Notes: generated by a model from the letters alone, not told the origin. A stretch of 64,000 bases of DNA from Candidatus Sungiibacteriota bacterium (GCA_016201505.1 JACQCQ010000002.1:144903-208902), one strand, 5' to 3'. Shown: positions 7,465 to 46,348, numbered from the stretch's first letter. Translations and numbers: made by a program.

Positions 7465-8259
7465 ATGACCTTAGCCGAAATGGATCTGAAAAGCGAATTG
7501 AGTCCGGACGAAGAAATCCAAACCCTTATGAAGGCCGGGGTGCATATTGGGCATGTAAAATCCAAAACTCATCCGGCTATGCGACCTTTTATCTTTACGA
7601 CCAGAAATAACGTCCAGATCATTGATGTTTTAAAAACGAAGGAGTTTTTGGTAAAAGCCGAGGCCTTTTTAGAGAGCGTCCGGGCTCGCGGGGGACTTAT
7701 CCTTTGGGTCGGCACTCGGCCATCGGCGCGGGTTGCGGTTGAACAAGCCGCCAAGAAAACCAGTATGCCCTACGTTACCACGCGCTGGACGGGAGGACTC
7801 TTAACAAATTTCCGCGTGATCTCGAAGCGAGTGCAAGACATGGAGGAGATTGAACGCCAGACGCGTGACGGCGAACTGGAGAAGTACACCAAACAAGAAC
7901 GCGCTCGCATCAATGATGAATATCAATCGCTCGTAAAAGTCCATGACGGTCTCCGCCTCTTAAAAAAGATGCCGGATGCGGTGATTATTATTGACACCCT
8001 GCAGGACAACCTGGCAGTCAATGAAGCGCGAAAAGTCAGAATTCCGATTGTCGCTCTTTCTGACACCAATACCGATCCGAATCTGGTTACCTATTCTATC
8101 CCATCCAATGATGATGCCAGACTCGCCGTCGGCTATATGACTGAACGCTTGGCCGAAGCAATTTTGGAAGGTGCTGAAGAGGCCAAGCGAGTCGAAGCGC
8201 TCGCAAAAGCCAAAGCGGAAGAAGCCAAAGCCAAAGTACAGGAGGAATTGAAAGCATGA
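7465..8259 (+). CDS. rpsB: 30S ribosomal protein S2
   Basis: GVHIGH motif. The start is chosen at MTLAEMD rather than the upstream in-frame ATG. Acidic/Lys-rich C-terminal tail. Confidence 0.85.
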   Translation: MTLAEMDLKSELSPDEEIQTLMKAGVHIGHVKSKTHPAMRPFIFTTRNNVQIIDVLKTKEFLVKAEAFLESVRARGGLILWVGTRPSARVAVEQAAKKTSMPYVTTRWTGGLLTNFRVISKRVQDMEEIERQTRDGELEKYTKQERARINDEYQSLVKVHDGLRLLKKMPDAVIIIDTLQDNLAVNEARKVRIPIVALSDTNTDPNLVTYSIPSNDDARLAVGYMTERLAEAILEGAEEAKRVEALAKAKAEEAKAKVQEELKA

Positions 8260-8372
8260 TCCCGTTAGAAACCGCGACGCGATCGTCAAACGATGAAGAA
8301 AATATGATGAAATGTAAAATCAATAGCCTAATGCAGACACCGCGTAGGGTCGCGATCTGCTTCTAACGGGAT
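8259..8372 (+). repeat. CCCGTTAGA-bracketed element (a): ATCCCGTTAGAAACCGCGACGCGATCG ... GGTCGCGATCTGCTTCTAACGGGAT, exactly filling the rpsB-tsf spacer
   Basis: Terminal inverted repeats read from the sequence. The ends are near-identical to element b1 at 45601-45694 but the interior differs. Confidence 0.6.
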
Positions 8373-8955
8373 GACACTAGGAGAGACAATTAAGGAGCTT
8401 CGGGTAAGAACCGGAGTTTCGGTTATGGAATGTAAAAAGGCGCTTGAGGAGGCGGGCGGCGATTTAGCGGCTGCCGAGAAGATTCTCGCGGGTAAGTTCG
8501 GCGGGATGGCGGCGCGTAAAGCCGCGCGAGAGGCGCGTGACGGCGTGATTGATGTCTATTTACATCCCAATGCAAAGATAGGGGTAATTCTTGAACTTAA
8601 TTCCGAGACTGACTTTGTGGCCCGAAACCCGGCGTTCAAGGACCTGGCGCATGACATCGCGCTTCACATCGCAGCCATGAATCCCAGGTATCGGGCGACA
8701 GAAGACATTACGGCTGATGTTAAGGCCAGAGAACGAAAAGACATCGAGGCCGAAGTGGCCAAAATGGGGGAATCGGGAGTTCTGGCAAAAAATAATGTAG
8801 CCGAGAAACTGTCTTTGCGGCTTCAAGAAATCTCGCTGATGTCACAGCCTTTCATCAAGGATCAAAATAAAAAAATTTCAGATCTGATTGAAGAGGCAAT
8901 CGGCAAGTTCGGGGAAAACATTAAAATCGGCCGGTTCACGCGCTACTCAATTTAA
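8371..8955 (+). CDS. tsf: translation elongation factor Ts (short form)
   Basis: 194 aa. N-terminal UBA-like ELRxxTGxxxMxCKKAL signature. Confidence 0.85.
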   Translation: MTLGETIKELRVRTGVSVMECKKALEEAGGDLAAAEKILAGKFGGMAARKAAREARDGVIDVYLHPNAKIGVILELNSETDFVARNPAFKDLAHDIALHIAAMNPRYRATEDITADVKARERKDIEAEVAKMGESGVLAKNNVAEKLSLRLQEISLMSQPFIKDQNKKISDLIEEAIGKFGENIKIGRFTRYSI

Positions 8956-21353: not shown

Positions 21354-21561
21354 GTCGCCTTCTTTTTAGGCATGGTACGAGACTCAAGAGATGCTTGAAT
21401 CTCGATCATGTAGATTAGGAATAATGAGTTGTATGAAGAATGACTCTCCCTACACGAATGCCTGGGTGAAAATAGTGGGCGAGAGATGAGTCGCCTAGCC
21501 CGCTGACTGCGTTAGCAGTCGGCCGGGGAACCTCCACGGGGTTACCCTCACTAGCTCCCTT

Positions 21562-21670
21562 ATCCCGTTAGAATGCCGCGGGTGGGAGTTGAACCCACAC
21601 ATCCTTTCAGATACACGGTCCTGAACCGTGCGCGTCTGCCAATTCCGCCACCGCGGCATTCTAACGGGAT
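21562..21670 (-). repeat. ATCCCGTTAGAATG ... CATTCTAACGGGAT inverted repeat that extends the tRNA-Leu acceptor stem by 14 bp on each side
   Basis: Read from the sequence. Same terminal words as the CCCGTTAGA elements at 8259 and 45601. Confidence 0.6.
21574..21657 (-). tRNA. tRNA-Leu (anticodon CAG), long variable arm
   Basis: Minus-strand read: GCCGCGGTGGCGGAATTGGCAGACGCGCACGGTTCAGGACCGTG...GGGTTCAACTCCCACCCGCGGCA. No encoded CCA. Confidence 0.8.
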
Positions 21671-21717
21671 AAACGAGCGTGGTCTCACGAGTCACCCGAG
21701 CATTCGTCTAAAGACAG

Positions 21718-26600: not shown

Positions 26601-26625
26601 TGATCCCGTTAGAGAATTAATTATC
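26601..26625 (+). repeat. solo left arm of the CCCGTTAGAGAATTAA-type element (GATCCCGTTAGAGAATTAATTATCGG) in the uvrC/uvrA divergent spacer
   Basis: 17-nt identity to the left arm of element b2 at 45701. No right arm found nearby. Confidence 0.45.
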
Positions 26626-26744
26626 GGCTGTATTTTGGTTGCCAATAATTATTTTACCAAGGGCCGGTTCTGGCTTATAGATCGCGGTTAATTCCCCAAT
26701 GGGATTGAATTCTATTGACAAGGAGAGTAGAATGGAAACCTTTC

Positions 26745-44889: not shown

Positions 44890-45129
44890 TTAGCGAATGG
44901 TATAGGCGAGGAGTCCGAGAAATCGGGCTCTTTTGATGGCTTGAGAAAGAAGGCGCTGGTGCGTGGCACAAACACCCGTTCTCGTACGCTTGGCGATTTT
45001 ACCCTGCGGATTTACAAACTTGCGGAGAAACTCAGCCTCTTTATAGTCGATCACACTTGCGTTTGCCGTACAAAAAGAGCATTGAGTAGGTCGCTCTCGC
45101 TTCATAAATGGTTTTGTTTCAATCGGCAT
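44890..45129 (-). CDS. rpsR: 30S ribosomal protein S18
   Basis: GKIAKRTRTGVCATHQRLLSQAIKRARFLGLL signature. Confidence 0.8.
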   Translation of the reverse strand: MPIETKPFMKRERPTQCSFCTANASVIDYKEAEFLRKFVNPQGKIAKRTRTGVCATHQRLLSQAIKRARFLGLLAYTIR

Positions 45130-45136
45130 GGTTAAA

Positions 45137-45601
45137 TCAAAATGGTATATCTTTCACATCAATCTCATCCTCCGGGTACTGGACCGTGGGCGGCTCTTCG
45201 GCTGGAGCGCCTTGACCTTGACGCGAATCCGTTTCAGCCATCGTTGCCGCGCCCGTATTTTCTCTCTCCAAAGGCCGCGGGCCCATTTGCATTGACTCAG
45301 CGACGATCTCGGTGCGGTAACGCTTCGCGCCACTTTCTTTATCTTGCCAAGAACGGGTCTCAATTCTGCCTTCGACAAATACCAGCCTGCCGCGATTTAA
45401 ATACTGTCCGCAAATCTCCGCCAGCTTTCCCCAGGCTACAATGCGATGGAACTCGGCTTTCTGATTTTTTTCACCCGCTGGCGACATCCAGACTCGATTG
45501 GTGGCCACATCGAATGTACAAACCGATTGGCCAGTTGGGGTTTGTCTCAATTCCGGATCCCGGGTCAAGTTGCCGAGGATCATCGCTTTATTTACATTCA
45601 T
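45137..45601 (-). CDS. ssb: single-stranded DNA-binding protein
   Basis: GTG start. OB-fold (ILGNLTRDPELR), acidic DIPF C-terminal tail. Confidence 0.85.
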   Translation of the reverse strand: MNVNKAMILGNLTRDPELRQTPTGQSVCTFDVATNRVWMSPAGEKNQKAEFHRIVAWGKLAEICGQYLNRGRLVFVEGRIETRSWQDKESGAKRYRTEIVAESMQMGPRPLERENTGAATMAETDSRQGQGAPAEEPPTVQYPEDEIDVKDIPF

Positions 45602-45694
45602 CCCGTTAGAAGCAGATCGCGATCATCCGCGCTATCGCTCGAGTTAAGCTATTAATGTTGAGGAGCTTCATACCATTGTACCCCGTGTATGCGA
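45601..45694 (-). repeat. CCCGTTAGA-bracketed element b1 (CCCGTTAGAAGCAGATCGCGATC ... GCGATCGCGGCTTCTAACGGG) in the rpsF-ssb spacer
   Basis: The ends match element (a) at 8259-8372 in the same orientation relative to transcription. The interior is unrelated. Confidence 0.6.
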
Positions 45695-45700
45695 TCGCGG

Positions 45701-45799
45701 CTTCTAACGGGATTCATCCCGTTAGAGAATTAACTACTAACTCTGTTGCTGGTCTCATGTCTTTATGTGTCGTGAGTTTCATGTTCGAAATGTAGTCTC
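45701..45799 (-). repeat. CCCGTTAGA-bracketed element b2 (CCCGTTAGAGAATTAACT ... ATTCTCTAACGGG), tandem to b1 and separated from it by ATTCAT
   Basis: Terminal inverted repeats read from the sequence. Left arm shared with the solo copy at 26601. Confidence 0.6.
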
Positions 45800-45895
45800 T
45801 GATTCATTCTCTAACGGGATTCATGGTATTAACCGCAAACTTTTACAAACTTTCCCGCTAAGGTATACAAAATTTTTCATATTCCTTTTGTGGTC

Positions 45896-46348
45896 TTAAC
45901 TCCCTAGGATTTCATCCAGCCGCTTATCAATATTTTCGATATTGGTATCCGACTTCGCAAAAACCTCCGCCTCGCGCTTTGGAGCTTCAACCCTTGCCAT
46001 GCCTTCCGTCGATCGCCAATTGGGGCGGAAAGGGTGGGCTTTCTTTTCTTCGATCACTTCTTCGACGATCAAAGAACGCATAATCTCTTTTTCAAATTTC
46101 AGCTTCTTTTCAATCTCGTGAAGCGCCGCCGGATCAGCCGAGAATGTCGTGTAGCCAAAATAAGCCAGGCGGTCGTTTTCGATGTAGTAGGCGAGGCGCC
46201 GTTTCTCGGGTTCTTTGATATGCCGAATAGTACCTTCGAGTTCGCCGATGATTCGGGTAATAATGCCGGTCACGCGGGCAACATCATCTTCCGCCACCGC
46301 GGGAGAAACCAGATAGCCAATTTCGTATTTTTTAGGCTGATAGTCCAT
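45896..46348 (-). CDS. rpsF: 30S ribosomal protein S6 with a C-terminal extension
   Basis: MDYQPKKYEIGYLVSP... S6 fold. rpsF-ssb-rpsR synteny. Confidence 0.85.
   Translation of the reverse strand: MDYQPKKYEIGYLVSPAVAEDDVARVTGIITRIIGELEGTIRHIKEPEKRRLAYYIENDRLAYFGYTTFSADPAALHEIEKKLKFEKEIMRSLIVEEVIEEKKAHPFRPNWRSTEGMARVEAPKREAEVFAKSDTNIENIDKRLDEILGS

Follow-up and report, generated by a model that had tools for sequence, protein, structure and literature searches.

A tandem pair of bracketed cassettes at a Sungiibacteriota ssb start codon as the local trace of a widespread, apparently undescribed family

Two cassettes between rpsF and ssb

We analyzed a window of 64,000 nt of Candidatus Sungiibacteriota bacterium DNA (GCA_016201505.1 JACQCQ010000002.1:144903-208902; coordinates count from the start of this window), in which two short elements, b1 and b2, each bracketed by an inverted repeat, occupy the spacer between rpsF and ssb. 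The genes rpsF, ssb, and rpsR all lie on the minus strand. The ssb coding sequence (45137..45601), an open reading frame (ORF) whose homologues carry the PF00436 SSB domain, is the gene whose start codon has been struck. It is preceded by rpsF (45896..46348), an ORF assigned from Ribosomal_S6 at the syntenic position in relatives, and is flanked on the other side by rpsR (44890-45129), assigned from Ribosomal_S18 at that position in relatives.

The ORFs and inverted-repeat calls bear out the claim of a first-pass annotation of this DNA that two elements stand head to tail between rpsF and ssb. The gene-proximal cassette b1 (45600..45713, minus strand) measures 114 bp including its terminal A-T pairs, and the gene-distal cassette b2 (45716..45820, minus strand) measures 105 bp; both were recognized by inverted repeat and fold, and the interior of b2 is unlike that of b1. 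Each is bounded by the perfect inverted repeat ATCCCGTTAGA/TCTAACGGGAT. The arms of b1 (45600-45613 and 45700-45713) are 14 nt long and 100% complementary, and those of b2 (45716-45733 and 45803-45820) are 18 nt long and 94% complementary. The pair had been given an end at 45799, which cuts off the right arm of b2; the cassette reaches 45820, 21 nt further.

Three copies of the hexamer ATGAAT accompany the cassettes, and the minus-strand spacer reads ATACC-ATGAAT-b2-ATGAAT-b1-ATGAAT-GTA-AAT-AAA. The copy nearest the gene (45596..45601, minus strand) is the working start and second codon of ssb, whose ORF begins here and whose orthologues begin ATGAATCTC. The second (45712..45717, minus strand), a direct repeat between b2 and b1, is the duplicated target, and the third (45819..45824, minus strand), a direct repeat upstream of b2, marks the original place of the start codon relative to the upstream sequence. 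The ATTCAT that the first-pass annotation saw after each element is indeed there, and is the reverse complement of this start plus second codon. On the minus strand the 3' arm of b1 runs directly into the ssb start codon, with the terminal A-T pair of the repeat forming the AT of the ATG. The overlap of arm and start codon thus stands as first described, with the start being ATG (CAT at 45599-45601 on the plus strand) and not the GTG that had been named. That the flank is a duplicated start codon, that the bracket recurs across phyla, and that it also encloses tRNA genes went unnoticed in that annotation. Between rpsF and b2 there is also a 19-codon ORF (MKNFVYLSGKVCKSLRLIP; 45821-45880, minus strand) with an AAGGA Shine-Dalgarno-like sequence, the TGA of which overlaps the most upstream copy of ATGAAT; it may pass ribosomes on to the cassettes or may have arisen by chance.

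Relatives provide the empty sites. In two loci with SSB proteins 74-75% identical (L121 and L123), the rpsF-ssb spacers are 76 nt and 21 nt long, contain no bracket, and hold a single ATGAAT, with the ssb genes of the relatives beginning ...ATGAATCTCAA...; orthologous spacers of this kind identify b1 and b2 as insertions. Presence/absence polymorphism is likewise found at the junction of rpsB and tsf, which carries a related cassette in the window (see below): in L252 the two genes overlap as plain GCATGATCTCA (overlapping ATGA) with no element, and in L251, which also has no element, the tsf ATG lies about 98 nt past the rpsB stop without overlap. Additionally, a contig from the same strain (L120) terminates inside b1, the usual sign of an assembly break at a repeat. 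The first-pass annotation had proposed a look at the orthologous rpsF-ssb spacers; their lack of brackets refutes a conserved, locus-specific role for the pair, and mobile insertion predicts the same outcome.

Of the two origins offered in that annotation, processed polycistronic small RNAs find no support, as the interiors are not conserved, nothing in Rfam matches even at E<=10, and the elements are absent at orthologous loci. Elements that insert next to an existing copy are supported by the empty sites with their single ATGAAT, by the order ATGAAT-b2-ATGAAT-b1-ATGAAT, and by other tandem pairs (L051 and L010). [quoted passage not shown]

Cassettes on start codons

A scan of one genome per species for ATCCCGTTAGA-N70-100-TCTAACGGGAT returned at least 119 loci, and the family counts given here rest on 141 elements of 82-123 nt extracted from the loci listed. 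The hosts include Paceibacteria, Saccharibacteria, Kaiser-, Nomura-, Kerfeld-, Levy-, and Moranbacteria, and other lineages of the Candidate Phyla Radiation (CPR), and outside the CPR they include Omnitrophota, Sedimentisphaerales/Planctomycetes, and WOR-3. A single match among 2.9 million viral contigs argues that the element is not phage-borne.

The consensus terminal inverted repeat is (T/C)CCCGTTAGA...TCTAACGGG(A/G). In 134 of the 141 elements an ATG directly follows ...TCTAACGGG on one side, and this downstream ATG starts an ORF of >=60 aa in 114/128 cases (median 227 aa). When the element is written T-CCCG...CGGG-A, an exact 4-nt direct repeat flanks 99 of the 141 (TGAA in 74, TGGA in 18), with duplications of 3 nt in nine copies and of 5 nt in five; the few copies that lie off start codons have duplications of TTTA, TCAA, TAAA, or CTAA. 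In three loci (L018, L040, and L027) the left flank is GTGRAT and the right flank ATGRA, and in one with a C-G terminal pair (L225) the left side reads ATGAA-C and the right side G-TGAAC. These mixed flanks indicate that the first base of the rebuilt start codon, A or G, comes from the element and the TG from the duplicated target. Tandem and nested arrays occur among the family copies, and rebuilding of the start codon together with re-creation of the target accounts for tandem arrays such as b2-b1 and those at L051 and L010.

Struck start codons are found in three contexts. Of 49 cases inside operons, 17 are stop/start overlaps (ATGA). In 21 of 96 elements the upstream ATG is preceded by a -10-like hexamer at a distance of 6-7 nt, with counts of mostly 0-2 at other spacings (5 at a 9-nt gap), which marks leaderless genes. 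The third context is the ordinary gene with a leader.

After 9-11 invariant nt come three stem positions (10-12) that co-vary as A-T, G-C, and C-G pairs, 94% of them Watson-Crick. The interiors are AT-rich and variable, and most copies have a GC-rich helix or hairpin against the gene-proximal arm, followed by ...CCT-R-Y. Judged by this GC-rich marker, orientation is gene-adjacent in 62 copies and inverted in 3. The GC skew of the window is positive throughout, and a copy at 8259 points in the opposite direction to b1 and b2, each matching its own gene. This indicates that orientation follows the gene and not the replication strand, though the argument is weak, coming from only two loci; to that extent, a replication-strand explanation is contradicted. 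Two ideas about the interiors were rejected. An in-frame coding insert does not fit lengths that lack a 3-nt periodicity or read-through in frame in only 2 copies, and a tRNA origin does not fit local alignments of tRNA-Leu with 125 interiors, which are no better than shuffled; a 13-nt tRNA-Leu match in one interior (L016) is probably due to chance. On a Planctomycetaceae contig (L066, 7070-7350), short brackets of 50-64 nt lie off start codons, one after a gene end and one with a CTAA duplication, and the Planctomycetes form of the family may be closer to an ordinary intergenic hairpin repeat.

The window itself holds four complete pairs of the exact 11-mer ATCCCGTTAGA and its complement (8259-8372, 21562-21670, 45600-45713, and 45716-45820) and a fifth, degenerate pair at 26603-26705, giving five copies in 64 kb where ~0.03 occurrences of an 11-mer are expected by chance. 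Across the window elements, comparison of folds with those of shuffled sequences gives z = -4.4 to -7.9. The copy at 8259..8372 (plus strand) is homologous to b1 and fits precisely between the stop of rpsB (TGA) and the start of tsf (ATG), in the context GC-ATGA-T-CCCG...CGGG-A-TGA-CAC, with Pfam Ribosomal_S2 and EF_TS on either side. Together with b1 it belongs to one sub-family that includes L025, L093, L105, and L023, from Levyibacteria and others, in which only ~30 nt at each end can be aligned and the interiors are not conserved. Both of these copies, and many other members of the sub-family, have an inner helix of GCGATCGC-type palindromes (GCCGCGATCGC ... GATCGCGATCTGC, for example 45615-45625 and 45687-45699 in b1), which can pair across the element or as a local 3' hairpin and so give two alternative folds. 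In public gene calls, proteins identical to SSB (148 aa) and EF-Ts (176 aa) start at an internal Met and not at the ATG abutting the cassette (window 45583-45601 and 8371-8424); the cassettes thus cause N-terminal mis-annotation.

The degenerate copy lies upstream of uvrA (26603..26705, plus strand), with its right arm mutated to CCCAATGGGAT and a flank of TTGAA in place of ATGAA. Its ATG has been lost (flank ATTGAA; 26603-26732), and a new ATG at 26733, preceded by a separate AAGGAG, seems to serve uvrA instead, suggesting that old insertions can be bypassed through the evolution of a new start.

Cassettes that carry a tRNA

The remaining copy in the window (21562..21670, minus strand) encloses a complete tRNA-Leu(CAG) (21574-21657) and breaks a resident tRNA-Leu(CAG) gene in its anticodon loop. 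It was recognized by tRNA and fold and has homologous cassettes in L136, L188, L191, and L222; its arms lengthen the acceptor stem to a helix of ~20 bp, with a fold of -65 kcal/mol (z = -7.9). The resident gene (21476..21697, minus strand) is now a decayed pseudogene, split into a 5' remnant at 21671-21697 and a 3' remnant at 21476-21561; the 3' remnant has an extra 41-nt hairpin-forming insert (about 21487-21527) in the T loop, and the D arm is shortened. Relatives keep an ordinary tRNA-Leu(CAG) at the same position between the GPI and RNase J genes, intact and unbracketed in L128, L129, and L130. In L130, upstream of the intact tRNA-Leu (2030-2145), a partial tRNA 5' half forms part of a tandem duplication, which marks the GPI/RNase J spacer as a rearrangement hot spot even without a cassette.

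In metagenomes, a scan for the arms around a T-loop motif gave at least 120 loci, on which the counts for tRNA-carrying copies rest. Among the loci listed, 115 of 128 bracketed sequences hold a bona fide tRNA, with Ala-CGC (25), Val-CAC (21), Val-TAC (16), Pro-CGG (12), and Pro-TGG (9) joined by Thr, Gly, Leu, and Arg. When the bracket is removed in silico, a host tRNA reappears over the junction in 70 of 132 cases, and in all 70 the inner tRNA lies on the host strand; it belongs to the same amino-acid family in 59 of the 70, at a mean host/inner identity of 76%. In the examples inspected, the junction is 36-41 nt from the host 5' end, in the anticodon loop, with some copies in the D loop instead. 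Insertions of the latter kind are seen in L140, L177, L181, L223, L139, L217, and L218, where TAGCTCAG is followed by CTTGC, the cassette, GTGAA, and then GTAGAGCA, and where one and the same host context contains tRNA-Thr in some contigs and tRNA-Val in others. The host cloverleaf has been lost to a varying degree in 53 of 122 cases with enough flanking sequence, and all stages of decay are present. We read these copies as cassettes that disrupt a tRNA gene while supplying a replacement.

Nesting is most elaborate at L142 (3540-3990, minus strand), where five successive tRNA-Ala 5' halves, each ending ...TT(C/T)CA(C/T) and joined to CCCGTT(T)AGA, are followed by one complete tRNA-Ala(CGC) and then by arms and two host 3' halves, in the manner of a Russian doll. 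The stacked halves imply repeated invasion of the copy working at the time. Further genes of this kind are present in L154, L164, L178, L207, and L215, and other nested brackets measure 217-272 nt. Most of the tRNA-carrying copies are closed by a C-G pair and lie between constant flanks, TTCAC...GCAAG, which can face either way with respect to the host. In several anticodon loops the motif TTCAN spans positions 32-36, and the target at start codons, NTGAA, is its complement; we conjecture that TTCAN/NTGAA may be a common recognition element of both forms.

Mechanism, alternatives, and significance

Each insertion duplicated a 4-nt target, TGAA, which is contained in the ssb start ATGAA. At the gene-proximal end an ATG (or GTG) is rebuilt from the cassette's last base, A (or G), and the duplicated TG, so that the gene keeps a start codon and the target is regenerated for a further insertion, which explains the tandem pair. 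In the mechanism that we propose, movement would take place at the DNA level, probably catalyzed in trans by a protein that reads the 9-11-bp arms.

Insertion at a start codon has consequences for the transcript, in which the arms are predicted to pair with the AU of the true AUG as the last pair of the stem (-29 to -46 kcal/mol). The predicted fold of b1 (-46 kcal/mol, z = -4.4) has the AU of the ssb AUG paired at the stem base, and that of b2 reaches -28.7 kcal/mol (z = -4.7). There is no Shine-Dalgarno-like sequence between stem and AUG, and the native upstream signals stay with the upstream copy of the start codon. A 14-18-bp arm stem would hide the true AUG. Initiation at the upstream copy would carry ribosomes into the 5' arm and open the stem; they would reach the stops of the 3' arm (TAA in one frame and an ATG-overlapping TGA in a second) and then re-initiate at the gene start, and expression would thus survive the insertion. 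The frames of the 3' arm are TTC-TAA-CGG-G-ATG, GGA-TGA, and a third that runs into the gene. The frame of the upstream ATG is open through the interior in 37 of 105 de-duplicated elements, compared with 16 of 210 when the two remaining frames are taken together (Fisher p = 4e-9). The ORFs that begin at the upstream ATG number 112; the arm TAA terminates 25 of them and the ATG-overlapping TGA 11, and of 27 in-frame cases only 2 are read through. Such a distribution is consistent with a sizeable subset being under selection for a short ORF, one that would unwind the stem and pass ribosomes to the real start. The rpsB-tsf copy is a clean example, with a short ORF that is open for 36 codons and stops at the 3'-arm TAA, 4 nt before the tsf ATG. 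At leaderless-type genes the frame is open in 10 of 21 elements, compared with 24 of 75, a difference that is not significant. A conserved leader peptide was rejected, since the frame relative to the arms shifts with duplication length. Translational bypass with take-off and landing codons, an idea prompted by the duplicated ATGAA, was set aside, as the duplication is at the ORF start and initiation at the second copy is simpler.

Several observations weigh against this explanation. No transposase or recombinase partner was found, and a scan of 1.63 Mb of loci DNA for arm pairs 0.3-4 kb apart with matching extensions yielded, nested tRNA cassettes aside, no long (autonomous) element with these arms. 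A transposase acting on symmetric ends would by itself leave both the 62:3 orientation and the >90% restriction to start codons unexplained. About six copies have ATGAAT as the left flank while the gene reads ATGAGA or ATGGA, which fits a flank carried by the element better than a true duplication. The tRNA-carrying copies show no target duplication, and one simple mechanism may not cover both forms. With regard to expression, early stops interrupt the upstream-ATG frame in 65% of copies, including b1 (21 codons) and b2 (6 codons), so that for ssb the model needs re-initiation over a distance or RNA cleavage. Furthermore, the sense fold is barely better than the antisense fold (-36.2 versus -35.2 kcal/mol, p = 0.03), and G-T and A-C mismatches are equally frequent in the outer stem; selection on the stem as RNA is thus not demonstrated.

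An account at the RNA level would treat the stem as a signal for an endonuclease (RNase III-like, or a splicing enzyme), with the cassette cut from mRNA or pre-tRNA, ligated or not, and the duplicated ATGAA marking equivalent cleavage points. It would explain why cassettes share the orientation of the gene (62:3), why inner tRNAs always lie on the host strand (70/70), and why orientation in the window tracks the gene and not the direction of replication. The co-variation of stem positions 10-12 also speaks for it, as does the duplex of ~20-22 bp formed by outer stem and inner helix, which is the size of an RNase III substrate. The tRNA insertion point at ~35/36 is, moreover, where Patescibacteria carry self-splicing group I introns (PMC13011429). 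We nevertheless consider the account unlikely. Empty sites and 4-nt duplications are DNA-level signatures, and Val, Ala, and Pro hosts do not regain a 7-nt anticodon loop once the bracket is taken out. Host tRNAs in general are visibly decaying (53/122 cloverleaves lost, and the host in the window wrecked) and not rescued by splicing. No intron or ribozyme in Rfam matches, and a group I intron is rejected by the absence of a catalytic-core match (at the gathering score and at E<=10) and by size, as inserts of 100-120 nt, or 82-123 nt across the family, fall short of the ~200 nt or more that is needed. An archaeal-type bulge-helix-bulge intron, which needs a pair of 3-nt bulges on either side of a 4-bp helix where exon meets intron, is rejected as well, since inspection of 70 host tRNA flanks placed the junctions within or beside an uninterrupted helix and no register allows the motif to be drawn. 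Cleavage without ligation would be compatible with DNA-level insertion.

Site-specific recombination was given about the same low weight. A tyrosine-recombinase-type enzyme would act on symmetric 9-bp arms around an asymmetric 6-bp overlap (ATGAAT), and a small circular or folded single-stranded cassette would enter ATGAAN sites much as integron cassettes and elements exploiting Xer do. In layout, the tandem junction TCTAACGGG-ATGAAT-CCCGTTAGA resembles a recombinase core site, an asymmetric overlap would account for the fixed orientation, and it would also account for the ATGAAT left flank where the gene reads ATGAGA or ATGGA. The arms contain GTTAGAR and YTCTAAC, which we take to be integron-like core motifs. 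Duplications are 3-5 nt and target-derived, however, with TGGA, TGCAA, TGTA, and TTTA on both sides, and the flanks of the tRNA type differ (TTCAC versus GCAAG), unlike conservative recombination with one overlap. A double-stranded circle of ~110 bp is physically unfavorable. Integron cassettes are small and promoterless, form tandem arrays, and have a hairpin recombination site (attC) with GTTRRRY/RYYYAAC cores. In attC, RYYYAAC forms the 5' core and GTTRRRY the 3' core, whereas our cassettes have the reverse order, with GTTAGA at the 5' end, and single copies hold half-sites at both ends. No integrase gene was seen next to any copy, nor any attI or integrase context near the copies, though no systematic search was made. 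A conserved cis-regulatory RNA or a small-RNA gene pair specific to the rpsF-ssb-rpsR operon is highly improbable. Position in the spacer, a stable fold, and a partly paired start codon would suit it, but its absence from orthologous spacers already contradicts it, and the bracket precedes unrelated genes in >100 genomes with interiors that are not conserved. A scan of the rpsF-ssb spacer also gave no promoter-like or terminator-like signals, and there is no Rfam match.

Among known systems, the closest kind is the bacterial MITE, for which ends, duplication, size, copy number, and empty sites fit, with the autonomous partner as the missing piece. The terminal inverted repeats are perfect over 11-18 nt in b1, b2, and the copies at 8259 and 21562, and identical in at least 119 loci; the start-codon form duplicates its target (exactly 4 nt in 99/141, and ATGAAT triplicated at ssb), which the tRNA-carrying form does not; and the cassettes are small (82-123 bp), have no consistent frame, and are present in five copies in the window. 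Correia elements of Neisseria, RUP, ERIC, and Rickettsia palindromic elements are ~100-150 bp long and ORF-less, with terminal inverted repeats and short duplications. They have many copies per genome and presence/absence polymorphism, and are transcribed as long hairpins inside operons. The cassettes differ from them in having 9-11-bp ends that are identical across several phyla, in lying exactly on a start codon, which they rebuild, in >90% of T-A-closed copies, in an orientation that is ~95% fixed to the gene, and in a sister form with a complete tRNA as cargo, which enters tRNA genes of the matching amino-acid family (59/70). IS200/IS605 elements and their miniature derivatives (PATEs, REP/RAYT) rely on hairpins and insert in a fixed orientation beside a tetra- or pentanucleotide, and their right end can repeat the target motif. 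Their hairpins are separate and subterminal, whereas the cassette ends pair with each other; they have no target-derived duplication, which the cassettes do; and cassette orientation in the window goes by gene and not by replication strand, a weak distinction at two loci.

Integrative elements that target tRNA genes with a replacement segment hit a loop of the gene and supply a functional replacement, and the displaced fragments accumulate. The cassette, in contrast, is only ~105 bp long, consists of the arms and an entire tRNA, sits within the host gene without displacing one of its ends, and encodes no integrase. The group I introns described at position 35/36 of Patescibacteria tRNA genes (Nakagawa et al. 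2026, PMC13011429) share with the cassettes the bacterial group and the anticodon-loop region, and in both cases the interrupted tRNAs escape standard annotation. The cassettes differ in an insert of ~100-120 nt without a group I core or Rfam match, in the second complete tRNA inside, and in the decay of the host halves. With Rfam 15 no cassette is matched; at the gathering score the window yields only ordinary tRNAs, of which there are five (four by Rfam), and at E<=10 nothing is returned in 45500-45950. No published description of the element was found in the full-text literature searched, which included papers on CPR introns and insertions.

A broader proposal, which we offer tentatively, is that the bracket represents an unrecognized class of selfish cassette in CPR bacteria and neighboring phyla that homes to anticodon-loop-like motifs (TTCAN/NTGAA) and, on protein genes, rebuilds the start codon. 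In tRNA genes, the cassette's own replacement tRNA would make insertion survivable and lead to Russian-doll stacking; protein genes would rely on re-initiation from a short ORF or on RNA cleavage at the stem; and movement might be by a new enzyme or through an RNA intermediate.

The tandem pair at ssb is the local trace of a widespread and apparently undescribed cassette family, which would be a mobile element aimed at start codons and tRNA loops, the most sensitive nucleotides of a gene, without killing its host. The hosts are among the smallest and most streamlined bacterial genomes, and the family explains assembly breaks and mis-annotated start codons and tRNA genes in CPR genomes. It provides a natural test bed for re-initiation and leaderless-gene translation in uncultured bacteria, and it points to a DNA- or RNA-handling enzyme that recognizes an 11-bp site conserved across phyla. 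Finally, incoming copies that take the place of tRNA genes one after another represent a form of tRNA gene turnover for which we found no description in the literature searched.

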